Below, piece by piece: positions 7,440 through 63,992 of a DNA stretch of 64,000 nt (the stretch's first letter is position 1; each line of letters begins with the position of its first letter). The DNA is from Mobula birostris. Its lineage: Eukaryota. The stretch spans positions 57,604,581 through 57,668,580 of the forward strand of contig NC_092388.1 of the NCBI RefSeq assembly GCF_030028105.1. The letters run 5' to 3'. A model generated the notes under the pieces. It did not search any database, had not been told where the DNA came from, and worked only from the letters and a program-made list of their open reading frames with translations. The position numbers were made by a program, and so were the translations under genes.

Positions 7440-9023
7440 CAATTCAGGGAGGAGTGTAGGTGCTCAGCAAGGTGGTTTCCCAATCCACGTCAGGTCCTAC
7501 CAGCACATAGAAGGCTTCACGAGGAACACTGGAATGAAAAGCCTCATCCTGAGAGCAGATGTGGCGGAGGTAGCAGAATTGAGAGAAGGGGATGGGGTTT
7601 TCACAAGTTACAGGCCGGGAAGAAATATAGTCCAGGTAGCTGTGAGAGTCTATGGGTTTATAATAGACATCAGTAGATAAGCTGTCTCTGGAGATAGAGA
7701 CAGAGAGATTGAGAAAGGAGAGGGGTCAGAAATGGACTGGGTAAGTTTGAGGGCAGGGTGGAAGTTGGAGGCAAAGTGGATGAAGTCCGTGAGTTCTGCA
7801 TGGAAGCAACATCAATACAGTCGTCCCACCCTTCCCACCCATCCTCTTCTCCTAATTTCTCTGTCTCCACCGCATTTGCTCTCAGGATGAGGCTTTTAAT
7901 TCCAGAATTAAGGAGATATTCTCCTCCTTCAAAGAAAGATGCGTTCCTTCCTCCACTATCAATGCTGCACTCAACTGTGTCTCTTCTATTTTGCACATGT
8001 CTGCTCTTATCCCATCCTCCCGCCACACCACCTCTTGCCCTCACCTACCATCCCATCAGCCCCCGCATCCGGCACATAATTCTCTGCAAATTCTGCCACC
8101 TCAAAAGTGGGGGTGATCTTTCCCTCCCCCCCCACTTTCTACTTTCCGCAGGGATCGCTTCCTATTCAACTCCCTTGTCCATTTGTCCCTCCCCACTGAT
8201 CTCCCTCCTGGCACTTGGTCTTGCAAGCAGAACAAGTGCTACACCTGCTCCTACACCACCTCCCTCAGAGTCTCAAACAGTCCTTCCAGGTGAGGTGTCA
8301 CTTCACCTGTGAGTCTCTTGGGGTCATCTGCTATATCCGGTGCTCCCGGTGTGGCCTCCTGTATATCGGTGAGACTTGACGTGGATTGGGAGACAGCTTC
8401 GCTGAGTGTCTACGCTCCATCCACCAGAAGAAGTGGGATCTCCCAGTGGCCACCTAGTTTATTTCCACTTCCTATTCCCATTCCAATATGTCTATCCAAG
8501 GCCTCCTCTGCTGTCGTGATGAGGTCCCACTCAAGTTGGAGGAACAACAGTTTATATTCCGTCTGGATACCCTCCACCCTGATGTGATGGCATGAGCATC
8601 AATTTCTCAAACTTCCGGTAATGTCACCCCCTCAATTTCATCATTCCCCATCCCATTTTTCTTCCCTCACCTTATCTCCTTGCCTGCCCATTGCTGCCCT
8701 CTGGTTCTCATCCCCCCCCCACCCCACCTTTCTTTCTTCCATGGCTTTCTGTCTTCTATTAGACTCCCACTTCTCCAGCTGATCACCATTCAACTTACCA
8801 GCTCTTTTACTTCATCCCTCCACCTCCTGGTTTCACCTATCACCTTGTATTTCTCCTTCCTCTTCCCCCCACTTTTTAACTCTACTCATCGTCTTTTCTC
8901 CAGCCAAGACCCAGAATGTCGACTGTACTCTTTTCCATAGATGCTGCCTGGCCTGCTGAGTTCCTCCAGCAATTTGTGTGTGTTGCTTGAATTTCCAGCA
9001 TCTGCAGATTTTCTCTTGTTTGT
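7440..9023. mobile_element. Rearranged Penelope-like element (RT C-terminus, GIY-YIG, terminal repeat); left part inverted
   Basis: Minus strand ~7620-7675 encodes TDVYYKPIDSHSYLDYISS. Plus strand ~8320-8470 encodes VICYIRCSRCGLLYIGET...DLPVAT. The terminal repeat ends ...tctgcagattttctcttgtttgt. The hammerhead core is deleted at ~8905. Confidence 0.8.
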
Positions 9024-13490: not shown

Positions 13491-15900
13491 AGATATTCTT
13501 TTGTTTATGAAAAGTAAATTTATAACATTTCTAATTCAAACACATGTAAATTGAAGAATGACTATAGAGAAATAGACTCCTGAGCTTAATTGATGATATA
13601 AAACTTCACATTCCTATCATTCCTGTAGATCTCAAATTAGATACTTAGAGACGCTTATGTAAGTGTTACGACATATCCGGGAAAGCATACAGCTCTAGAC
13701 CTAGACATCGAGGGACAACAGTCCAAGCATATTGGATAGAAGCAGGAGTGTTTAGCTGTTCTGTTGTATATCTTACTGTACACACTATTTTTATTACAAA
13801 TTACTATAAATTGCACAATGCACATTCTAACAGAGATGTAACGTAAAGGTTTTTACTCCTCGTGTGTGAAGAATGTAAGAAATAAAGTCAATTCGATTCA
13901 ATTCAGCCTGGATTTGTTCTTTTTCAATCTGTTATGTTCACATGTCCTTTGGGCCTCAGTAAAATAGCTGTACCCAGTAATAGGTAGAGTGTTTTCACTC
14001 TTTTTATGTAGCATTTTGATTCCCTGAGATATTCACTATTTGTACACAATAAAATGGGTTAATCGAAATATTTAAAAGTCCAGACCTGTATGATAGGAAG
14101 GTTATTATTAACAATCTTAAATATTCATGAGTTCCTAAGGGATAATTTAAGGTTCACATTGGTTTAATGCCATACACACTAGACTGCAATGGAATTCCAT
14201 GCTCATTCAAGTTCAAAGTAAATTTTATTATCAAAATACATAGACGTCACCATATACAACCCTGAGATTCATTTTCTTATGGACATACTCATCAAATCTA
14301 TAGAATAGTAACAAGATCAATGAAAGATCAACCGGAGTGCAGAAGACAACAAACTGAGCAAAAGAAAAAGGCAATAAATAATGAGAATATGAGATAATGA
14401 GATAAAGAATCCTTAAAGTGAGATCATTGGTGGAGGAACGTTTCAACGATGGGATAAGTGAATGTAGTTATCCCCTTTTATTCAAGAGCCTGGTGGTTGA
14501 GGGGTAGTAACTGTTGTGTGAAGTGCACAGAGTAAATGGTATTACATGATCATAATAAATATAGCAAAGAGCACACAAACAACAGAATACAGACATATAA
14601 TCTGAGCTAGTGCAAAAATGGTAACAATAATGGAAGAGGTAGAATTAATGGTTTGAAAATACCGGGAAGTGAGGTGGGAAAGAGTTTCAGAGGTCCGATG
14701 GCAGTGCGAAGAGCTGTTCTTAAGTCTAGTCATCTGGGCTTTTAGGCTTTTGCTATTGCAAGCTGTCAAAGCTGGCACGGAGCCTTGCTCAGACAGAACT
14801 GCAAAATGCCCGTTAAGTCATCAAGTATCAACTAATGATCAGAATCTGGAAAAATTAATGAATTAGGTACACCAACCTTCCACCAGAAACTTACTGCCTT
14901 GAGAACAAAGAATGTTAGATTTGAAAGTAATTGTTTCAACAATTTATAACTATAGAATCATGAGTCAGGATTAATTTAGACAATGGGACTAGCCAGGATT
15001 TCCTGCAACCTATGAAGTATGATTTCTAGATTAGCCATCCGTCTTTGGCACCTGTATAATATACTATCTCACTTGATGGATCTTATTGTTGCTGCCAGTG
15101 CTGTATTGTATTTTGACAAGAGCTCTGCTTACGGCAACTTTCTATCCCCGGGGATCTATTTGTAATATGTACATTATGTAACTCATAATAAATCAGTTCC
15201 ATGATCAGGGAATTAGAAAATATGAAAGATCTGCTGATCTGTTTACTATACAGAATGCACTAAAATAGTTTAATCAGAGTTTGAGGTCTAATGAAGAAAC
15301 TTTCTCAGAAGTGTGTTCTGAGATAGTAAAGGTAATAAGCTGTTGTCAAACAGATAGGCCACGTTATTGTAGCCAATGCCACACCCTCTGATTAGATAGT
15401 GGTAGACTGCAGTGTGATTACTAGAATATATTGACTAACAAAACAGATATTTTGTTCAGCCTTTGAGGGATGGAGGGAATGTGTGAGGGGGAAATGTGCA
15501 AGCAGAACATATTTAGTTTAATTTGGCTTGCGTTTGACGAAGACATCATGGATTAGAGGCCCAATTCTATGTTCTGTAAAACTACATTGCCCTCTGATCT
15601 CACCATCGGTAGATGTTGTAATGGTTGAACTAGGAATCATGAAGGCAGATCACACCAAGACCATAACAATGAAAAAAATTGCATTTATATAGTACCTTTC
15701 CGAAAACTTAGAATGCTTCAGTATGTAATGTAGTTATAATTGCTATTTAAATATTAGGGCATTTAATTAGTACACACTGAGGTCTCATGAGCAGTAATTA
15801 GTTCATGAGTTGTTTGTGATGAAGGTGGTTGACAGATAAATATTGACAGAGCACTGAGGAGAACTGATTTAATCTTTGAATAGAGCCATGAAATCTTCTT

Positions 15901-16340
15901 AAGGGCCCCTTCTGAAGGGGGTGGGGTGGGGTTCTCAGACAACGTGGGTGTTGTGATGGAGGACTGGCCTGAATAAGGTCACCTTCTGAGGGTGGGTACT
16001 GAGACAAAGTGGGTGCTGTGATAGAGGACCGGCCTGAGTAAGGGCGCCTTCTGAAGGGGAGGGGGGGTGGTTCTCAGACAACGTGGGTGCTGTGCTGGAG
16101 GACCGACCTGAATAAGGTTACCTCCTGGTGGGGGGGGGGGTGCGGTTCTCAGACGACGTGGGTGCTGTTTTAGAGGACTGGCCTGAGTAAGGGCGCCTTC
16201 TGAAGGGGGCGGGGTGGTTCTCAGACAACGTGGGTGCTGTGCTGGAGGACTGGCCTGAATAAGGTCACCTTCTGAAGGTGGGGGGGGGGCGGTTCTCAGA
16301 CAACGTGGGTGCTGTGCTGGAGGACTGGCCTGAATAAAGG
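15901..16340. repeat. G-rich minisatellite, six units of ~65-75 bp
   Basis: Unit ccttctgaag(G-run)ggttctcagacaacgtgggtgctgtgctggaggactggcctga(ataaggtca|gtaagggcg). Confidence 0.9.
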
Positions 16341-16809
16341 ACAGCTTGAGCCCACAGTATTCTGGCTCAGGGTGAGATGCTGCAGCTGAGCTCGGCTGAC
16401 ACAGTCCACAACATCCTTTCAGCCAGACCCAAATGTGCAGAATGGATGATGATAAATGGAAATAGATCACAAAATATACAAATAAAACTGCAGCCTCGGG
16501 ATAGGCGAGGGAGATAAAATCAAAACACTCACCAAATGTGTTCCAGAGCAACCTCCTACTAAAACCAAGAGAGCAGCTGGAAAATGACTGCTATAGTTGT
16601 GGTTTACATGACCAGCTTCTTTAAAGCTATTTAAATTACAAAGAGATTCAACCTTTGCCACATGCATATTTTTATTAGAAATGAGCTCTAACAGGTTGCA
16701 TCATGGACTGGTACATTAGTTTGAATGCACAGAGTGTAAGAAGCTGGAAAGAGATTCAGCCCAGCACATTCCTCAGTGGTATCTACTTGAAGCGCTGGCT
16801 GAAGAAGAC

Positions 16810-17945: not shown

Positions 17946-18139
17946 TACGGGTCATATTCTGCATAGAGATCGGTGACCAGTGGTGTGCCTCAGGGATCTG
18001 TTCTGGGACCCCTTCTCTTCGTAATTTTTATAAATGACCTGGATGAGGAAATGGAGGGATGGGTTAGTAAATTTACTGATGACACAAAGGTTGGGGGTGT
18101 TGTGGATAGGGTGGAGGGCTGTCAGAGGTTACAGCAGGA
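17946..18139 (+). mobile_element. CR1 RT fragment of a different subfamily
   Basis: [23 protein letters not shown]...[11 protein letters not shown]. Confidence 0.85.
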
Positions 18140-20303
18140 AAAGTTTTTATCTGCAAGTTGAGAGGGATAAGGGCAGATCAGAAGTGTCAGTATTGCAGTT
18201 GAACAAAGGAGACTGTGGAGCCATGAGGGAGGAGCTGGCCAAAGTTGACTGGTCAGATATCCTAGCAGAAAAGACAGTGGAACAGCAATGGCGGGTATTC
18301 TTGGGAATAATGCACAAGGTGCAAAATCAGTTCATCCCCAGGAGAAGGATTGATTCAAAGGGGGGAAAATGGCCACAGTGGTTGACAAAGGAAGTCAGAG
18401 ATAGCATAGCATTAAAAAAGAAGTATAACAGAGCTAAGGTGAGTGGGAAGATGGATGATTGGGAAATTTTTAAGGAGCAACAGAACTTAACTAAAAAGGC
18501 TATACGGGGAGAAAAAATGAGGTATGAACGCAAGCTAGCTAGGAATAGGATGGCAGAAGTTTTTTTTTAGGTATGTGAAGAGAAGGAAGATAGTTAAGAA
18601 CAATATTGGGCCCTTGAAGAATGAATTGGGAGAAATTGTTATGGGAAACAGAGAAATGGCTGACGAATTTAATAAGTACTTTGGATCTGTCTTCACTAGG
18701 GAAGACACAAGCAATCTCCCAGATGTATGGATGGGCCAAGGACATAGGGTAACAGAGGAACTGAAGCAGATTGACATTAGGAAGGAAACAGTGATGAGTA
18801 GACTGATGGGACTGATGGCTAACAAATCCCCAGGTCCAGATGATCTGCATCCTAGGATACTAAAGGAGGTGGCTCTGGAAATTGCAGATGCATTGGTGAT
18901 CATTTTCCAATGTTCCTTAGATTCAGGATCAGTTCCTGAGGATTGGCGAATGGCTAATGTTATCTCACTTTTTAAGAAAGGAGGGAGGGAGAAAACAGAG
19001 AACTATCACCCTGTTAGCCTAACATCAGTAGTGGGGAAGATGCTAGAGTCCATTATTAAAGATGAAATAGCGGCATATCTTGATAGCAGTGATAGGATTG
19101 GGCCGAGCCAGCATGGATTTACCAAGGGCAAATCATGCTTGACTAATCTATTGGAATTTTTCGAGGATGTAACCAGGAAGATAGACGCGGGAGATCCAGT
19201 GGATGTGGTGTACCTTGACTTTCAGAAGGCATTTGATAAGGTACCACATAGGAGATTGGTGGGTAAAATCAGAGCTCATGGCATTGGGGGGAGGATATTG
19301 AGATGGATAGAAAACTGGTTGGCAGATAGAAAGCAAAGGGTAGCGGTGAATGGGTGTTTCTCGGAATGGCAGGTGGTGACTAGTGGGGTGCCACAGGGCT
19401 CGGTATTGGGACCACAGCTGTTTACGATTTACGTCAATGATTTAGAGGAAGGCATTGTGAATAACATCAGCAAGTTTGCTGATGATACTAAGCTGGGTGG
19501 CAGTGTGACATGTGATGAGGATGTTAGGAGAATTCAAGGTGACTTGGATAGGCTTTGTGAGTGGGCAGAAACCTGGCAGATGGTGTTAATGTGAATAAGT
19601 GTGAGGTTATTCACTTTGGGAGCAAGAACAGGAAGGCAGATTATTTTCTGAACGGTGTGGAGTTAGATAAGGGAGAAATACAGAGATCTAGGAGTACTTG
19701 TTCATCAGTCTCTGAAGGTGAATGAGCAAGTGCAGCAGGCAGTGAAGAAGGCTAATGGAATGTTGGCCTTTATTACAAAGGGAATTGAGTACAAAAGCAA
19801 GGAAATCCTTTTGCATTTGTACAGGGCCCTGGTGAGACCACACCTGGAGTATTGTGTGCAGTTTTGGTCTCCAGGGTTAAGGAAGGACATCCTGGCTGTG
19901 GAGGAGGTGCAGCGTAGGTTCACTAGGTTAATTCCTGGGATGTCGGGACTGTCTTACGCAGAGAGGTTAGAGAGACTGGGCTTGTACATGCTGGAATTAA
20001 GGAGATTGAGGGGGGATCTGATTGAGACATATAAGATTATTAAGGGATTGGACAAGATAGAGGCAGGAGATATGTTCCAGATGCTGGGAGAGTCCAGTAC
20101 CAGAGGGCATGGTTTAAGAATAAGGGGTAGGTCATTTAGGACAGAGTTGAGGAGGAACAACTTCTCCCAGAGAGTTGTGGAGGTGTGGAACACGCTGCCT
20201 CAGAAGGCAGTGGAGGCCAATTCTCTGGATGCTTTCAAGAAGGAGCTAGATATGTATCTTATGGATAGGGGTATCAAGGGTTATGGGGACAAGGCAGGAA
20301 CCG
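18140..20303 (+). mobile_element. CR1 LINE ORF2 (RT) fragment, few disablements, lacking the 3' tail
   Basis: [84 protein letters not shown]. Frameshifts near 18570, 19585 and 19680. Confidence 0.95.
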
Positions 20304-21391
20304 TAAGGCAGGCAGTTGGGCAAACCAAAGTCTCCAGGAAAATGGCGCCGGTTAACTCCAAGGTTAACTCACTAGTAGATAGGAAAGTGTAATGCTCGGC
20401 AGGAGTTGTTGTGATGGACGGTCTATATGATCTGGTGGACTAGTTGCTAGTCTTTGCTTTTCAAAATATAAAATTCAGACTTAAATATTTTAAATGAAGG
20501 AAACCAAAATAATAGCAAAACTGGCAGTCTGTCTAATGGCAAAGAAGCAGGTCATAGGGCACAGGAAGATATCAGTAGACTGGGTAGAAAGTCATAGGAC
20601 TGTCACATTAGATTCGTTCTGAAGTAAATGCAGGGTAATACTTGAGGAGAGCAAACAAGGCAAGGGAATGCACAATAATTGATAAAAAAAAAACAGAACA
20701 CTTTGGAGATTTAGAGAGATCTCACATTGCATATTCACTAGTTTTTCAGATAACAGATGGTTAAGAAGGCAAATAGTCTACTTGCCCTTACTGACCAAGA
20801 GTCAGGGAGGCCATACAGGACCTATGTGATGCATGAATTAGATCCATAGCTAGATAAAGTTTTGGTCACCATACTATGGGAAGGATGTAATACCACTAGA
20901 GAGGTAAGAGATGATTTATGAGGATATTGCAAGAGCTAAATAATTATGGTTATGAGGTGTCTGAACCAGGGTTGTTTTATTTGGAGTAAAAGGATCTGAG
21001 GAAGGTTTTAATCAAGCTTTGACAATGACAAGAGGTCTAGACAAATTGCACAGGAAGTATCAATTTCCTGATCAGAAAAGTCAGCAGTCAGAGGAGTAAA
21101 TATAATTTGTGAAAAGCTAAGAAAGGGTGTGTTCAGAATGAAAGTTTGTTTAATTTGGTGGGATTTCAGGATTGTCAGATGCATTCATTGATATGACCTC
21201 ATCGCTCTACAACCAAATCTTGAGGGTTCAGCCTGATTTTGATGAACACAACCATCTCCTCCCATGTCTTTATAGTCAGAGAGCTACCTGGCCCTTTTTG
21301 GGAAAACAAGATAACCCATCTTCCCCATCCAGGTTCATTGTGTAGTGCAGCAAAGGTGTGGAATCCATTTTCCTCCACATTTATATATTTA

Positions 21392-44600: not shown

Positions 44601-45325
44601 GGTGACAGATGAAAACCTTCTGACTTTGACAAAGTTTTGAAACCACATTTCCTTAGCATTTAGCGGCTGTTTCAGCAGAGAAAGTAAAGAAAACCAAATT
44701 CAGTGGACATGAAAGTTGTCTACCGGCACAAAGTACTGAGGATTCATAGGTGCCCAAAGAAGCAGAGGAAGTCCCCAGTTTGAGAAGGTACCCCATCCGT
44801 TGCCTGGTCAGACTTGTGCAGATGCAAGATCCTTGCCATCAACCTGATAGAAGAACTGTTGTGGTCACTATTGGTACATGAGATCTCACTTACTGAAATT
44901 CATTAAGCATTCACTATGCTTTTTTCTGGAGAGGTCTGGAGATTGGATGCATGGAAGTGGATTCATAATCAGAATGATCTCACCGGAAATACTTTCCAAA
45001 CTTCCTGCTGGCTTGAATAAGGAACTCATCGAATCCTCCTGATTTCTGTATGGCATATTATAATGTGGACATGTTAGCTAGCACAGGGGAATAAGGGGAG
45101 AACTTCCACTCTGACTTGGACTTCATTCTCTAATAGACTTTTACAAGTGGTGGACTCATCCAGATGAAAGATGGTGATTGGAAAGGAATGATGGGAGGAA
45201 GTAGCCACAAAAAAATCTATCTCTTCCCAGACACAAGGAATTCTGCAGATGCTGGAAAGTCAAGCAACACACATCAAAGTTGCTGGTGAACGCAGCAGGC
45301 CAGACAGCATCTCTAGGAAGAGGTA

Positions 45326-45363
45326 CAGTCGACGTTTCAGGCTGAGACCCTTCGTCAGGGCTA
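45326..45363 (-). ncRNA. Hammerhead ribozyme motif, second copy
   Basis: Reverse complement: tagcc-CTGACGA-a-gggtctcagcct-GAAAC-GTC-gactg. The core is intact, with one stem I mismatch and weakened stem II. Confidence 0.65.
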
Positions 45364-45867
45364 ACTGAAGGAAGAGCTAGTAAGAGATTTGAAAGTGGGA
45401 GGGGGAGGGGGAGATCCAAAATGATAGGAGAAGACAGGAGGGGGAGGGATGGAGCCAAGAGCTGGATGGGTGATTGGCAAAAGGGATATGAGAGGATCAT
45501 GGGACAGGAGGCCCAGAGAGAAGGAGAAGGGGGAGGGGGGAAAAACCCAGAGGATGGGCAAGGGGTATAGTCAGAGGGACAGAGTGGGAATGGGATGTGG
45601 AATTAAAATGTGTGGCCACTGGGAGATCCTGCCTTCTCTGGCAGACAGAGCGTAGGTGTTCAGCACAACGATCTCCCAGTCTGCATCGGGTCTCGCCAAT
45701 ATATAGAAGGCCACATGGGCCTCCTGTCCCATGATCCTCTCATATCCCTTTTGCCAATCACCTGTCCAGCTCTTGGCTCCATCCCTCCCCCTCCTGTCTT
45801 CTCCTATCATTTTGGATCTCCCCCTCCCCCTCCCACTTTCAAATCTCTTACTAGCTCTTCCTTCAGT

Positions 45868-45905
45868 TAGTCCTGACGAAGGGTCTCGGCCCGAAACGTC
45901 GACTG
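45868..45905 (+). ncRNA. Minimal type I hammerhead ribozyme motif (Penelope-associated), core intact
   Basis: tagtc-CTGACGA-a-gggt-ctcg-gccc-GAAAC-GTC-gactg. Stem I is tagtc/gactg and stem II is gggt/gccc. The predicted cleavage triplet is GUC (after 45900). Confidence 0.75.
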
Positions 45906-46038
45906 TACCTCTTCCTAGAGATGCTGCCCGGCCTGCTGCGTTCACCAGCAACTCTGATGTGTGTTGCTAACTCTTCCCAGAGTTCAGTTCCACAAATACT
46001 GGTCTTTTAGAGAAAATAAAATGTGGGCAGCTTATAAA

Positions 46039-47159: not shown

Positions 47160-47760
47160 TAGATAATGTGTTTGTCTGTCATCCCAGCCCCAGGACACCT
47201 CTGCAGGTGTTCCTCAGGGAAGTTTCTTGTTCCCGATAATCCTCAGCTGCTTCATCTATGACCTTTATTCTATCATAATGTCAGAATTGGATATGTTTGC
47301 TGGTAATGCCCATGATAGGAAGGGGGCTTAGGAGAGGATGCAGAAGAGGTTTACCTGGATGCTGCCTGGAGTAGAGGGCAAGTGCTATAAGGAGAGGTTG
47401 GACAAACTAAGATTGTTTTCTCTGGAGTGTTGGAGGCTGAGTGGAGACCTCTGCTTACAAGATTATGAGAGGCGTTGATAGAGTAGACAGCCAGTCTCTT
47501 TTTCCCAGGGTCAAAATATCTAAACTAGAGGACATTTTTTAAGGAAAGAGAGAGTTACTTGAATGGAGGTCTGCAGGGCAAGTTTTTTTTCACACAGGGA
47601 ATGGCAGGTGGCGGGACTGGTGGTGGAAGCAGTCATAATGATGGTGTTATAGAGGGTTTTAGGAAGGCCAGGAATGGAAGGATATGGATCATGTACAGAT
47701 AGAAAAAATTTAGTGTAATTTGGCACCATATTTGGTACAGACGTCAAAGTCTGAAGGAAC
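47160..47760 (+). mobile_element. Old CR1 fragments
   Basis: gcaggtgttcctcaggga (GVPQG), tttgctggtaat (FADD-like) and a degenerate 3' region. Confidence 0.65.
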
Positions 47761-47818
47761 TGCTCTTCTACGTTATAAGTTCTGTGTTAACTTGGATCAA
47801 ATTACAGATCATTTGTCT

Positions 47819-50212
47819 CAGTTGGAAATTGGCAAGTATGATGTTGTAGGAGTAACAGAGACATGGCTGCAAGAGGACCAGGGCTGGGAAATGAATATTC
47901 AAGAGTATATGTCCTATCGAAAGGACAGACAGGTGGGCAGAGGGGGTGGGGTGGCTCTGTTGATGAGGAATGAAATTCAGTCCCTTGCGCAGGGTGACAG
48001 AGAATCAGGAGATGTAGAGACAGTATGGATAGAACTGAGGAATTGTAAGGGTAAAAAGACCCTGATGGGAGTTATCTACAGGCCCCCAAACAGCCTGGAT
48101 ATAGGGTGCAAGTTGAATCAGGAGTTAAAATTGGCATGTCGCAAAGGTAATGCTATGGTTGTTATGGGGGATTTCAGCATGCAGGTAGACTGGGAAAATC
48201 AGGTTGGTACTGCACCCCAAGAAAGGGAGTTTGTGGAGTGCCTCCGAAATGGATTCTTAGAGCAGCTTGTACTGGAGCCTACCAGGGAGAAGGCAATTCT
48301 GGATCTAGTGTTGTGTAATGAAGCGGATTTGATAAGGGAACTCGAGCTGAAGGAGTTATTAGGAGATAGTGACCATAATATGATAAGTTTTAATCTACAA
48401 TTTGAGAGGCAGAAAGGAAAATCGGAAGTGTCAGTATTACAGTTGAACAAAGGGGACTATGGAGCCATGAGGGAGGAGCTGCCAAATTTGACTGGAAAGA
48501 CACCCTAGCAGGGATGACAGTGGAACAACAATGGCAGGTATTTCTGGGAATAATACAGAAGGTGCAGGATCAGTTCATTCCAAAGAGGAAGAAAGATCCT
48601 AAGGGGAGTAAGGGGCAACTGTGGATGACAAGGGAAGTCAAGGACAGTATAAAAATAAAAGAAAGGAAGTATAATATAGCAAGGATGAGTGGGAAGCCAG
48701 AGGATTGGGAAACTTTTAAAGAGCAACAGAAGATAACTAAAAAGGCAATATGGGGAGAAAAGATGAGGTACGAAGGTAAGCTAGCCGAAGGTAAGCTTTT
48801 CCAATGTTCTATAGATTCAGGATCAGTTCCTGTGGATTGGAGGGTAGCTAATGTTATCCCACTTTTTAAGAAAGGAGGGAGAGAGAAAACAGGGAATTAT
48901 AGACCAGTTAGCCTGACATCAGTGGTGGGGAAGATGCTGGAGTCAATTATAAAAGATGAAATAGCTGCACATTTGGATTGCAGTAACTGGATTGGTCCGA
49001 GTCAGCATGGATTTACGAAGGGGAAATCATGCTTGACTAATCTTCTGGAATTTTTTGAGAATGTAACTATGAAAATGGACAAGGGAGAATTGGAACACAT
49101 GGTATTGGGGGTAGAGTACTGACATGGATAGAAAATTGGTTGGCAGACAGGAAACAAAGAGTAGGGATTAACAGGGTCCTTTCAGAATGGCAGGCAGTGA
49201 CTAGTGGGGTACCGCAAGGGTTGGTGCTGGGACCGCAGCTATTTACAATATACATTAATGCTGAAGGGATTGAAAGTAACATTAGCAAATTTGCAGATGA
49301 CACAAAGCTGGGTGGCAGTGTGAAATGCGAGGAGGATGTTATGAGAATGCAGGGTGACTTGGACAGGTTGGGTGAGTGGGCAGGTGTATGGCAGATGCAG
49401 TTTAATGTGGATAAATGTGAAGTTATCCACTTTGGTAGCAAGAACAGGAAGGCAGATTACTATCTGAATGGTGTCAAGTTAGGAAAAGGGGAAGTACAAT
49501 GAGATCTAGGTGTCCTTGTTCATCAGTCACTGAAAGTAAGCATGCAGGTACAGCAGACAGTGAAGAAAGCTAATGGCATGTTTGCCTTCATAACAAGGGG
49601 AGTTGAGTATGGGAGCTTCTGCAGCTGTACAGGGCCCTGGTGAGACCACACCTGGGAGTATTGTGTGCAGCTTTGGTCTCCAAAATTGAGGAAGGACATT
49701 CTTGCTATTGAGGGAGTGCAGCGTAGGTTCTTGAGGTTAATTCCCGGGATGGCAGGACTGCCATATGTTGAAAGATTGGAGTGACTGGGCTTGTATACAC
49801 TGGAATTTAGAAGGATGAGAGGGGATCTGATTGAAACAAATAAGATTATTAAGGGACTGGACACGCTAGAGGCAGGAAACATGTTCCCGATGTTGGGGGA
49901 GTCCAGAACCAGAGACCACAGTTTAAGAATAAGGGGTAGGCCATTTAGAACAGAGTTGAGGAAAAACTTTTTCACCCAGAGAGTTGTGGATCTGCGAAAT
50001 GCTCTGTCTCAGAAGGCAGTTGAGGCCAATTCTCTGGATGCTTTCAAGAAAGAGTTAGACAGAGCTCTTAAAGATAGTGGAGTCAAGGAATATGGGGAGA
50101 AGGCAGGAACGGGGTACTGATTGTGGGTGATCAGCCATGATCACAGTGAATGGTGATGCTGGCTCGAAGGGCCGAATGGCCTACTCCTGCACCTATTGTC
50201 TATTGTCTATTA
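47819..50212 (+). mobile_element. CR1 LINE ORF2 (APE + RT) with internal deletions and intact 3' tail
   Basis: YDVVGVTETWL, RKDRQVGRGGGVAL, GVIYRPPN, MGDFS, ILDLVL, SDHNMI, NYRPVSLTS, SGVPQG, KFADDTKL. Tail (ctattgt)n. Confidence 0.95.
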
Positions 50213-50312: not shown

Positions 50313-51232
50313 GAATCGGGAAGAATGTCATCTGTGACAGAGCTGCAACTCCTCTGGATGCTTTTCAGATGATGTCAGCTGCACATTATTACCCCAAACT
50401 AATGAGTATCATGGGTAACGTTCTCCGTTTCCTTCCTGCTTTTGTTAAAATGAAGCAAATGATTCAAGAGGGTTATGTGGGGGACTTGTTGATCTGTGAA
50501 GTCCAGGTTCATAGTGGAAGCCTTCTGGGTAAGAAGTACAACTGGAGCTGTGATGACCTAATGGGTGGTGGAGGACTACACTCAGTAGGAAGCTACATTA
50601 TTGATCTTTTGACTTTTCTAACCAGCCAAAAGGCTGTCAAAGTCCACGGCTTCCTAAAAACCTTTGTGAAGCAGACAAAACACATCCGAGGGATTCGCCA
50701 GATCACCAGCGATGACTTCTGTACATTTCAGATGGTGTTAGAAGCTGGCGTGTGCTGTACTGTAACACTGAATTTCAACGTTCCTGGAGATTTCAAGCAG
50801 GACATCATTGTGGTGGGATCCACTGGGAGATTGATAGTAAGCGGTAGTGATTTGTACGGACAGAAAAACAGTGCCACTCAAAAGGAATTGATTCTGGAAG
50901 ACTCGACTCCTTTAAGCAATGAATTGCTCCCAGAAAAAGCTTTCCGGGATTGCCCAATCCCATTCCTCAGGGGAACCATCATGATGGTTCAAGCCATTCG
51001 ACAGGCATTCCAAGACCAAGAAGATCGTCGGACCTGGGACGGGAGACCACTAACTATGGCAGCAACATTTGAGGATTGTTTGTATGCATTGTCTGTGGTG
51101 GACACCATTAAAAAATCCAATGAAACTGGTGAATGGCAGAACATTGTGATCATGACAGAAGAACCCGAGATTAGCCCTGCATATCTGATCAGCGAGGCAA
51201 TGCGTCGCAGTAGAATGTCCCTATTATACTAA
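50313..51232 (+). CDS. GFOD1: Terminal coding exon of glucose-fructose oxidoreductase domain-containing protein 1 (Gfo/Idh/MocA family); 5' exon lies outside the window
   Basis: After acceptor AG (50311-50312, phase 1) the frame reads (G)[43 protein letters not shown]...[14 protein letters not shown]...QITSDDF...[15 protein letters not shown]...[12 protein letters not shown]. This matches vertebrate GFOD1 as I remember it, including the GFOD1-type C-terminal tail. No frameshifts. Confidence 0.95.
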
Positions 51233-58483: not shown

Positions 58484-60425
58484 ACCATAAGACCATGAGA
58501 CATAGGAGCAAGATTAGGCCATTCAGCCCATTGAGTCTCCTCTGCCATTCCATCATGGCTGATTTATTATCCTTCTCAATCCCATTCTCCTGGCTTCTCC
58601 CCATAATCTTTGAAGCCCTGTCACGTTAGCTATATCTAATCAAGAACCTAGTAACCTCTGCCTTAAGTATACCCAATGACTTGGCCTGCACGGCTGTCTG
58701 TGGCAATTAATTCCACAGATTTAACAACATCTGGCTAAACAATTTTTCCTAATCTCTGTTCTAAATGATCATCCCTGAGGCTGTGCTTTCTGGTTCTAGA
58801 CTCCCCCTCTATAGGAAACATCCTTACCCCATCCACTCTATCTAAGCCTTTCTGTATTTGATAGGTTTCATTGGGATCCTCCTTCATTCTTCAAAACTTC
58901 ATCGAGTACAGGCCCAGAGCCATCAAACACTCCTCATACATTAACAAGAGAAAATCTGCAGATGCTAGAAATGCAAGCAATACACACAAAATGCTGAAGG
59001 AACTCGGCAGGACAGGCAGCATCTATAGAAAAGAGTCAGGTCCTAATGAAGGGTCTCAGTCCGAAACGTTGACTGTTTACTCCTCATACATTAACCCTTT
59101 CATTCCTGGGATAATTCTTGTGAGCCTCCTCTGGACCCTCTCCAATGTCAGCCCATCTTTTCTTACATGAAGGATACAAAACTGTCATCTCTAAGTGTGA
59201 TCTGACCAATGCCTTATAAAACTGCAGTACTACATCCTGCATTTGCTAACATTGTAATTGCCTTCCTCACCACAAACTCAACCTGCAAGTTAACCTTTAG
59301 GGAATCTTACATAAGGACTCCCAATTCCCTTGGCATCTCTGATTTTTGAATTTTTCTCACCATTTAGGAACTAGTCCATGACTCTATTCCTTGTACTAAA
59401 GTGCATGAACATACACTTCACTGCATTATATTCCATCTGCCACTTCTTTGATCATATCTGTCTAGGTCCTTCTACAGACATCCTGCTTCCTCAACACTAT
59501 CCGACACTGCATCTATCTTAATATCATCTGCAAACTTCACCACAAACTCATCAGTTCCTTTATCCATTTCATTGACATATGATGTGAAAAGCAATGGTCT
59601 CAACACTGACTCCTACAACACGCCACTACTCACCGCCAACTATCCAGAACAGACCCCTATTATTCTCACTCTTTTCCTCCTGCCAGTCAGCCAATCTTCT
59701 GTCTATGTTAGTACCTTTCCTGTAATACCATGGAGCTTTATCTTTCTAATTATCTGGAAACAGGAAGGGCCATGTGACTTACAATATCTACCTTCAGGCT
59801 TTTTAGCTTCCCAAGAATCTTCTCCTTAGCAATTGCAATGGCACTCATTCTGCCCCCAACACTCTTGCATTTCTTCCATTCTCCTAATGTCTTCCACAGT
59901 GAAGATTGACGGAAAATACTTATTAAGTTTCTTCACCATTTCTTTGTTCCCACTGTTATCTCTGCACATCATTTTCCAGTGATAAGCACTCTCGTCATTT
60001 TCCAGTGATAAGCACTCTCGTCTATCTTTTACTCTTTATCTGAAAGAAATCTTTTTGTATCTTCTTTTATGTTATTGGCTAGCTTACCTTAATATTTCAT
60101 CTTTCTCTCTTAATCGCTTTTTCAGTTGCCTTCTGTTGGTTCCCAATCGTCTACCTTCCCATTATTTTTTGCTATATTATATGGCTTCTCTTTTGCTTTT
60201 ATGCTACCTTTGACTTCTTTTGTCTGCTACAGTTGCTCCATCCTCCCTTTAAATACTTCTTCATTATTGGATGTATCTTTTCTGCACCTCTTGAATTTCC
60301 TCCAGAGACAGCAGCCATTGCTGTTCTGCCATCATCCCTGCTTGTGTCTCCTTCCATTCAACTTTGGCTAGCTCCTCTCTCATGCCTCTTTAATTCCCTT
60401 TACTCCACTGTAATACTGATACATC
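58484..60425 (-). mobile_element. Degenerate CR1 LINE (antisense to GFOD1)
   Basis: Begins with tail ccataagaccatgagacataggagc. atcatctgcaaactt (KFADD) at ~59522. Colinear with 27005-29370. Confidence 0.88.
58946..59078. mobile_element. 133-bp bipartite Penelope terminal-repeat insertion with 17-bp TSD
   Basis: actcctcatacattaac at 58929-58945 and 59079-59095. Contains an antisense terminal repeat plus sense gtcctaatgaagggtctcagtccgaaacgttgactg. Confidence 0.88.
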
Positions 60426-60449: not shown

Positions 60450-60988
60450 AAGGTTACCCAACATAGATTGGGAGACCACTTCGCCAAGCATCTGCGCGCC
60501 ACCTGCCAGAACAAGCAGGATCTCCCAGTGGCCACCCATTTTAATTCCACATCCCATTCCCATTCGGATATGTCCATCAATGGCCTCCTCCATTGTCATG
60601 ATGAGGCCACACTTAGGTTGGAGGATCAACACCTTGTATTCCATTTGGGTAGCCTCCAACCTGATGACATGAACATCGATTTCTCAAACTTTCAGTAATA
60701 CCCCCCCCCAACACCCCCTTCTCCATTTCCCATCCCCTTTGCCCTCTCACCTCATCTTGCCTGCCCATCACCTCCCTCTGGTGCTCTTTCCTTTTTCTTT
60801 CTTCGATGGCCTTCTGTCTCTTTCACCAATCAACTTCCCAGCTCTTTACTTCATCCCTCCCCCTCCAGGTTTCACCAATCATCTGGTGGTTCACTATCCC
60901 CTCCCCCACCTTTTAAATCTACTCCTCAGCATTTTTTACCCAGTCCTGCTGAAGGGTTTCAGCCCAAAACGGCAACTGTACTTTTTGC
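60450..60988 (+). mobile_element. Penelope 3' fragment (GIY-YIG C-terminus + terminal repeat up to a degenerate hammerhead)
   Basis: HRLGDHFAKHLRATCQNKQDLPVATHFNS...RLEDQHLVFHLGSLQPDDMNIDFSNF* and cagtcctgctgaagggtttcagcccaaaacggcaactg. Confidence 0.85.
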
Positions 60989-61868: not shown

Positions 61869-62689
61869 TGTCAAAACCTCCTTGAAATTATGTAATGTTC
61901 CCACTGATGCCCAGGAATTCCATTACTGTGTAAAATGGAAGAGTAATGCAAATGGCGTTGAAAATTTCAGAATCATACTTGAAGCTTAGCATAATTGAAG
62001 GCAGCAGATCGGATCTCAAATTACCCACCTACCCACAATAATCCAAAAGATTCTGAAACAGAAAATACTGGAAAAACTCAGAAAATAAATCAGCATCCGT
62101 GGAAAAAAGGATTTTTTAAATTTGGAAAATAGATTGTATTTACGCAATGTAGATAGAGGAAATATGATACAATCAGTACATGCCTTTCTTGACATTGCCA
62201 TCAGATAAACCCATTCACAGGGTCATCATAACTGTAGGTTCTATTTACAAAATGCCGAAGTCATTCATGTGCCCTAATTTATCAATGCACCCATCTTGTG
62301 CTTGTGAGGCTGTTATGTTGAATTCAGCTCCCAGTATCTCAAAACATGACTTTCCCACAAAGCCTTTGGGTTGGCTGCACCAGGCTTCAGCACATACTCC
62401 TGCAGCCTCGAATGTATCAGTCAGCAGCATTCACTTATGGACATCTCATTGTGCTGGGAGACTAACCAATTTTGGACAGACCAAAGTACGTCTTTCACCG
62501 AGTTGGTGGTTTTCCAACAGCACTTGATAAAGAGAGATGGCAGTATGTTTCCAGTGGGACAGAAGATGGGGGAGGGATGTAGAAAACAAAAGGAATGATT
62601 GTGATCAGATATTTACAAGGCTGAATGAACTCATAATGATAAGATGCTTGGACCTGCCTGGCAGCCTAGAATTATGCATGTAATATGTG

Positions 62690-62933
62690 GAGAAACTTCT
62701 TTAGCCAGAGGGTAGTGAATTTGTGGAATTTGTTACCACAGGCAGCTGTGGACGCCAGGTCTTTGAGTGTCTTTAAGATAGAGATTGATAGGTTCTTGAT
62801 TGGACACGGCATCAAAGGTTATGGGTAGAAGGCTAGGGTGTAGGGCTGAACAGGGGGAAAAGGATCAGCCATGATTGAATGGTGGAGCAGACTTGATGGG
62901 CCAAATGGCTTAATTCTGCTCCGATGTCATATG
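62690..62933 (+). mobile_element. CR1 3' end
   Basis: ttctttagccagagggtagtgaatttgtggaat...gatcagccatgattgaatgg...aattctgctcc. Confidence 0.85.
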
Positions 62934-62935
62934 TA

Positions 62936-63992
62936 GACTATAAGACCATAAGACACAGGAGCAGAATTAGCCCATTTAAGCCCATGGAATCTGCGATGCC
63001 ACTTCATCATGGCTGAATCATTTCTCTCTCAACTCCATTCTCCTGCCTTCTGCCTGAAACTTTTCATGCCCTAACTAGTCATGAACCAATCAACTTCAGC
63101 CTTAAATACACCCAATGAACTGGTCTCCATAGCCACCTGTGGTAATGAATAACACAGATTCACTACTCTTTGGCTAAAGAAATTCCTCCTCATCTCCCTT
63201 CTAAATGGAGTTCCCTCTATTTTGACATTGTGCCTTCTTGTCCTAGACTTCCCAATCCTTGGAAACAGCCTTTCCACATCCACTCTGTCTCTCGATAGGT
63301 TTCAATGATATTCCCCCTCATTCTTCTAAATTCCAGTGAGTACAGACCTAGAGCCTTCAATCTCACCTCATAGGATAAGCCTTTCATTCCTGAAATCATT
63401 CTCGTAAACCCTCTCCAACGTCAACTCATCCTTTTCAAATAAGGGGCCCAAAACTGCTCACAATGCTCCAAGTGAGGCCTCACCAGTGTGCATTCCATCC
63501 TTGCTTTTATATTCCAGTTCTCTCAAAATAAATGCTAACATTGCATTTGCCTTCTTCACCACCAACTCAACCTGCAAATTAACCCTTAAGGAATCCCGTG
63601 CAAGGACTCCAAAGTCCCATCACACCTTGGATTTTTGAATTTTCTCCCCATAGGCTTTTATTCGTTCTAACAAAGTGCATGACCATACACTTCCCAGTAT
63701 TGTATTCCATTTGCCACTTTTTTACTCATTCTCTTAATGTGTCCAAGTTTTTCTGCAGTGTCCCTGCTTTTTCAGCACTACCTGCCCCTCCACCTATCTT
63801 CATATGACAGTATCTGCAAACTTGGACACAGAACCATCAATTCCTTCAGCAAAATCAATGACATACAATGTAAAAAGAAGCAGTCCGAACACCAACCCCT
63901 TGCAGAACACCACCAGCAGCCAATCAGAAAGGCTGCCTTTATTCCCAGGCTTTGCCTCCTGCTTATTAGTCACGCTAGTATCTTTCCTGAAA
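62936..63992 (-). mobile_element. CR1 3' fragment
   Basis: GLSYEVRLKALGLYSLEFRRMRG and RRNFFSQRVVNL. Confidence 0.88.

Follow-up and report, generated by a model that had tools for sequence, protein, structure and literature searches.

Minimal type I hammerhead ribozymes (min-HHR) of Penelope-like retrotransposons (PLEs) are a known class of motif. A min-HHR of Schistosoma was inactive as a monomer, and its dimer or trimer cleaved weakly (PMC4209133). According to the accessible text of PMC11167929, the hammerhead of an Anolis PLE cut only in the presence of the element's protein, insertion in vitro did not require the hammerhead, and none of the RNA-seq reads had its start or end at the cut site. 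In vivo cutting by PLE hammerheads is posed as an open question in the accessible parts of PMC8557442 and PMC11167929. A layout with an inverted, truncated copy and a one-sided tail is known for PLEs, and a CX2-5CxxC linker between RT and EN is part of the description of Neptune and Nematis elements (available sections of PMC8557442 and PMC3846280 for the layout, of PMC8557442 for the linker).

Here, a motif of this kind is described in the window, i.e. the 64,000 nucleotides of Mobula birostris DNA that were analysed (NC_092388.1, positions 57,604,581 to 57,668,580). Its family membership and copy number, the anatomy of the insertion that carries it, the target duplication and the position within the gene GFOD1 were all observed. 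The reading that we prefer, with a probability of roughly 0.88, is that the motif is the terminal-repeat min-HHR of a Neptune-type PLE, which entered a GFOD1 intron in a young head-to-head insertion and likely does not cut the GFOD1 pre-mRNA.

The motif and its position in GFOD1

The motif occupies 38 nt at 45868-45905 on the forward strand. The letters read from the window match exactly the sequence quoted in the first-pass annotation, and its description (core, 5-bp stem I, extra A, 4-bp stem II, ACGU) was correct when re-read. Based on the sequence and a descriptor scan this is a minimal type I hammerhead motif with a predicted cut 3' of C45900. The core comprises CUGACGA (45873-79) and GAAA (45893-96), and an unpaired A45880 lies between positions 9 and 10.1. 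Stem II (45881-84/45889-92) has 4 bp, three G-C and one U-G, while stem I (45868-72/45901-05), the closing helix of type I, has 5 bp, four Watson-Crick and one U-G. Helix III is absent and is replaced by the palindrome ACGU at 45896-45899 (positions 15.1-16.1). C17 falls on 45900, so that the cleavage site predicted earlier appears to have been placed rightly. All parts of the min-HHR core (CUGANGA, GAAA, UH) are found within 45868-45905, and the sense copy in the GFOD1 intron has the canonical G10.1-C11.1 pair (G45881-C45892).

A degenerate 27-nt pattern of the motif had 5 matches in the window and 0 in 100 shuffles, and a core-only pattern found 88,934 core-intact matches in the genome (4.0 Gb assembly) as opposed to 1,514 for a reversed control; thus, the motif is not a product of chance. 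The first-pass annotation had proposed a search with the Rfam hammerhead models as a check. These covariance models gave no match to a hammerhead family, whether at the gathering threshold or with E values of up to 10 allowed, which would be expected of a motif without helix III. An Rfam match to the Hsp83 3' UTR element was rejected, as it corresponds to a purine-rich inverted repeat.

The gene in the window is GFOD1. It matches PDB 8y7p (E 6.6e-180), and its best named homologues are shark and ray GFOD1 with 91-96% identity, compared with about 60-63% for GFOD2. By homology to GFOD1, the last coding exon (exon 2) lies at 50313-51232 on the forward strand, and coding exon 1 (G000:C23:57571417-57571671) on the same strand, 33 kb upstream of the window. 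The intron between them measures 83,221 nt, with donor and acceptor phases in agreement; positions 1-50312 of the window are the 3' part of this 83.2-kb intron, which starts 33 kb further upstream. Since exon 1 is upstream and on the same strand, the hammerhead has the sense orientation within the intron, and 4,413 nt separate it from exon 2. The gene identity, the sense orientation and the distance of about 4.4 kb to the last exon had thus been called rightly, and exon 1 does not lie downstream of the site, the arrangement that had been named as one that would speak against the call.

Given the genome rate, the GFOD1 intron would be expected to contain 0.92 core-intact copies on each strand. 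One per strand was observed, both of them within the insertion at 45232-45967. BLAST detected 13 matches in the intron, 9 of which are sense. Neither among these 9 nor with the descriptor was another intact, ACGU-bearing sense copy found in the intron; one further sense copy passes the core descriptor, and its palindrome is lost. The hammerhead is not a feature of GFOD1.

A young head-to-head insertion of an abundant PLE

An inverted repeat of 253 bp, whose arms at 45263-45515 and 45716-45968 are 97% complementary, contains the motif; the first-pass annotation had missed this repeat. The element is a single insertion, 45232-45967, with a target duplication of 14 bp (forward strand, 45218-45231 on the left and 45968-45981 on the right) that is identical at 13 of 14 positions. 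Its right arm (45716-45967, forward strand) is a 5'-truncated, tail-less Penelope-like pLTR with 94% identity to the 3' pLTR of a full-length locus, L158, and consists of 3' UTR, the hammerhead and then about 62 nt. The left arm (45232-45719, reverse strand), as determined by BLAST to L158, is a 5'-truncated Penelope-like 3' end containing 140 nt of GIY-YIG coding sequence (45580-45719), a gap where about 200 nt are missing, 3' UTR, a hammerhead and a tail. This tail of about 32 nt (45232-45263, reverse strand) is present on the left arm only. The mirror hammerhead (45326-45363, reverse strand) is antisense to GFOD1 and is the predicted pairing partner of the sense motif; its core is intact, with one mismatch in stem I and with U11.1, where the sense copy has C11.1. 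The two arms differ at 8 of 253 sites (3.2%). If they were identical at birth, this small difference and the near-intact target duplication indicate a young insertion. A repeat scan of the window found no tandem array over the motif, which sits in a head-to-head pair with no tandem unit.

The motif belongs to an already known class and to a very abundant family. Among 625 candidate places, the best 40 match the right arm with 97-100% identity (the other 39 with 97-98%). Exact copies of 36 of the 38 motif bases number 4,423 genome-wide, and a 23-nt stretch downstream of the motif has 69,018 exact genome matches. In 52 arbitrary 10-kb stretches (520 kb) there were 54 terminal-repeat matches and 8 core-intact motifs.

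In several of the 30 loci examined, an RT/GIY-YIG frame continues into the repeat. L158 is a full partial tandem, consisting of a pLTR, an open frame of 1,114 codons and a second pLTR. Both pLTRs carry the motif, 3.7 kb apart, which bears out the earlier assignment to the Penelope class of minimal type I hammerheads. The L158 frame matches RVT_1 with an E value of 1.4e-5 and GIY-YIG with one of 0.0066, neither of which reaches the Pfam cut-off; in another locus, L003, GIY-YIG is above the cut-off, and the homologues carry RVT_1. A C-x4-C-x2-C linker precedes the endonuclease in all 7 long frames (including that of L160). Judged by its sequence, the carrier is a Neptune-type EN+ Penelope-like retrotransposon, with the clade taken from the linker motif. 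Ahead of the RT domain, the L158 ORF also contains a direct repeat of about 210 nt that is rich in proline and serine (L158:4866-5286).

Constraint on the motif was assessed by comparing 15 old and 16 young motif-spanning copies among the 54 random matches. The majority base was the same in old and young copies at every invariant position of the core (11 of 11) and at 17 of the 18 positions in the stems, where the sole change is a stem I U-G to C-G that keeps the pairing; downstream of the motif this holds for 46 of 63 positions and upstream for 3 of 13. The difference between the constrained motif positions (28 of 29) and the downstream sequence is significant (Fisher p 0.009), with an upward bias from the use of a motif-containing query. 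The free position N7 varies among lineages. No two-sided compensatory change was found among these 31 copies, where covariation is one-sided only. Because the motif is better kept from old to young copies than the sequence downstream of it, selection in the source elements probably acts on the family motif, and a lack of conservation of core and stems across copies, which the first-pass annotation had listed as contrary evidence, is not what these copies display.

At 10.1-11.1, G10.1-U11.1 is a weakened pair relative to the conserved G10.1-C11.1. U11.1 is the commonest young form, with 18,694 exact copies compared with 4,423 that have C11.1, and the opposite-strand CpG change (CA) is found in 999 copies. 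Symmetric CpG decay is ruled out as the source of U11.1 by the 18,694 TG versus 999 CA copies, and the three counts together indicate that U11.1 came from source elements. The sense copy in the GFOD1 intron keeps the G10.1-C11.1 pair that most young copies have lost. None of the papers returned by a literature search on the effects of G10.1-U11.1 mentions U11.1.

A total of 37 inverted pairs (38 rows minus one duplicate) were compared, at loci that had been picked by similarity, motif or ORF. All but two have one tailed and one tail-less end (35/37); these two are tailed at both ends, and no pair is tail-less at both. Around many of them, target duplications of about 10-14 bp enclose the whole unit, as judged by eye. 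Some tailed ends have four extra bases before the host DNA. The 5' ends were determined in a sample of places matching the downstream 23-mer, namely 75 of the first 76 on contig C1 (L164-L233). Of these young arms, 24 start between -10 and +20 of the hammerhead C3, at 7 times the per-base rate elsewhere, and one starts at the cut site (+27 to +29). The -10 to +20 range had been suggested by 9 of 16 arms and was then tested on the separate 75-arm sample, in which the arm ends may be off by a few bases and the two arms of a pair are not independent observations. Cleaved RNA was rejected as the usual insertion template, since a single arm starts at the cut site and 24 of 75 start within the hammerhead upstream of it; the templates were thus mostly uncut.

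The GFOD1 insertion probably arose by priming of reverse transcription from both nicks of the target, at the tail end on one strand and about 32 nt upstream on the other. In the native partial tandem, such as L158, the two pLTRs 3.7 kb apart would allow the ACGU dimer fold, probably aided by the element's protein. A more far-reaching proposal, which we consider unlikely, is that the hammerhead of the Neptune family acts mainly as a structure and not by cutting. Two element RNAs would be joined through ACGU, a dimeric RT would copy both of them into the two nicked strands of the target from two start points, and it would often stall where the dimer is joined. This would explain the inverted arms, the one-tail rule (35/37), the distribution of 5' ends (24 versus 1 of 75) and the success of G10.1-U11.1. 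An RNA 5' end at the front edge of the motif may explain the cluster of 5' ends equally well.

The window contains further repeats. At 2591-2893 and 2897-2985 lies a short head-to-head pair that is older and belongs to the same superfamily; its arms are both tailed and are joined inside the hammerhead, and the pair sits in an AT-rich palindromic flank and is followed by a third, decayed copy. An older Penelope-like insertion at 7529-9022 (72-80% to L158) includes 1.2 kb of ORF end and pLTR on the forward strand, together with an inverted ORF piece. Decayed Penelope-like ends with damaged cores are located downstream of the GFOD1 stop (58943-59076 and 60456-60981). Two LINE copies, which we take to be CR1/L2-like, contain RT or AP-endonuclease domains and are found at 18000-20400 and 47700-50210; the second of them ends about 100 nt upstream of the GFOD1 exon 2 acceptor. 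In addition, there is a GC-rich tandem array (15900-16347; unit of 72-75 nt, about 5-6 copies) and a degenerate palindrome of about 510 nt that is 71% self-complementary (62685-63193).

Folding and the likelihood of cleavage

When 45200-46000 was folded, 37 of the 38 motif bases were paired with 45326-45363 (p at least 0.996). Forcing stems I and II to form costs 64.8 kcal/mol in this segment, and the same for a nascent chain ending at 45915. The lowest-energy fold of the isolated 38-mer pairs the core with itself, with a probability of 0.0007 for the open-core fold and a z-score of -1.27 for the motif. A modelled swapped dimer reaches -16.7 kcal/mol, compared with -34.1 for the best co-fold. 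These ViennaRNA energies omit the tertiary contacts of the catalytic core, and silence is thus a thermodynamic prediction. The antisense left arm would be transcribed first, and 152 nt of right-arm sequence preceding the motif would pair before the motif emerges.

Cutting of the GFOD1 pre-mRNA is unlikely in view of the predicted 253-bp duplex with the antisense arm and the lack of an intact sense partner nearby. The models suggest that the hammerhead is likely an inert transposon remnant, a silent passenger rather than a gene switch. An active ribozyme of special interest in GFOD1 pre-mRNA, as had been implied in the first-pass annotation, is unsupported: the motif is present at chance level (0.92), is predicted to pair with its antisense copy and has no intact ACGU-bearing sense partner in the intron, and the insertion is a young one from a family with tens of thousands of members. 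For GFOD1 it is probably of no consequence.

Low-rate cleavage of GFOD1 pre-mRNA, by means of pLTR RNA in trans or the element's protein, might modulate splicing or termination. The core, both stems and the G10.1-C11.1 pair are intact in this sense copy, which precedes the 3' splice site by 4.4 kb; the duplex could be opened by ADAR editing or helicases, and tens of thousands of intronic copies could act as partners in trans. There are also precedents in the available text of two papers, in that protein-assisted cutting has been shown for the Anolis PLE hammerhead (PMC11167929) and roles in mRNA biogenesis have been proposed for amniote intronic hammerheads (PMC6155905). Nevertheless, such cleavage is improbable, considering the predicted duplex of 253 bp, the rarity of the open core in the lone 38-mer (0.0007), the deficit of the swapped dimer (-16.7 versus -34.1 kcal/mol) and a presence no greater than chance expectation.

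The intact state and intronic sense position are the only points in favour of a motif domesticated as a conserved GFOD1 regulatory element, similar to that of RECK. A young insertion with 3.2% arm difference and a nearly intact target duplication, 4,423 identical copies elsewhere and the absence of helix III make this extremely improbable. A hammerhead look-alike with no catalytic history would agree with the lack of an Rfam match, a fold z-score of only -1.27, the G-U at 10.1-11.1 of the commonest young form and the one-sided covariation. It is very improbable all the same, because all 11 invariant core bases are kept in old and young copies while N7 varies and a stem I U-G becomes C-G, and because the pLTR position and the anatomy match the published min-HHR consensus (PMC4209133). 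A terminal-repeat min-HHR of a Neptune-type PLE is the reading that we retain. The approximately 89,000 core-intact motifs of this genome are a natural test bed for the cutting of PLE hammerheads in vivo.

Comparison with described elements

The amniote intronic hammerheads, e.g. in RECK, are also of type I and in a host intron; according to the accessible text of PMC6155905 and PMC10761166, they are conserved among amniotes and show activity in cell reporters. Unlike these three-helix, low-copy motifs, the GFOD1 copy is without helix III, young, multicopy and inside an inverted repeat. Animal non-LTR retrozymes (bioRxiv 10.64898/2026.07.22.740005, as far as available) likewise have a type I hammerhead from PLE pLTRs; they form head-to-tail tandem arrays, whereas the GFOD1 copy belongs to a head-to-head pair with no tandem unit.

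In the accessible text on the Anolis Poseidon element PAc (Frangieh et al. 2024, PMC11167929), two RT start points define the tail, the hammerhead is upstream of them and uncleaved RNA is the main template, all as in the present family. By contrast, the PAc ORF starts inside the hammerhead, while in L158 the cut site precedes the first ATG by about 140 nt.

With the published PLE min-HHR, the family shares type I, the lack of helix III, a palindromic 15.2-16.2, an unpaired base before stem II, a helix I of 4-5 bp, thousands of dispersed copies and pairs on opposite strands 100-700 bp apart. It differs in its 4-bp stem II, in the G-U at 10.1-11.1 of most young copies and in its host group, shark and skate terms being absent from the two supplementary files searched. 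Literature searches found no publication on elasmobranch PLE hammerheads, and the family may be listed in the supplements of PMC4209133 (file 1) or of the bioRxiv preprint, in which one chondrichthyan was sampled. The family count is about ten times the 9,000 min-HHR of Xenopus tropicalis, with a looser pattern and a larger genome here.

The family also resembles the EN+ Neptune-type PLEs, as described in the available text of Craig et al. 2021 (PMC8557442) and Arkhipova et al. 2013 (PMC3846280). Both have an RT with a C-terminal GIY-YIG and a Zn-finger-like linker, pLTRs in partial tandem with an adjacent inverted 5'-truncated copy, a tail of 30-40 bp at one end and a target duplication. Compared with these elements there is no structural difference, and the linker motif places the family in their clade.
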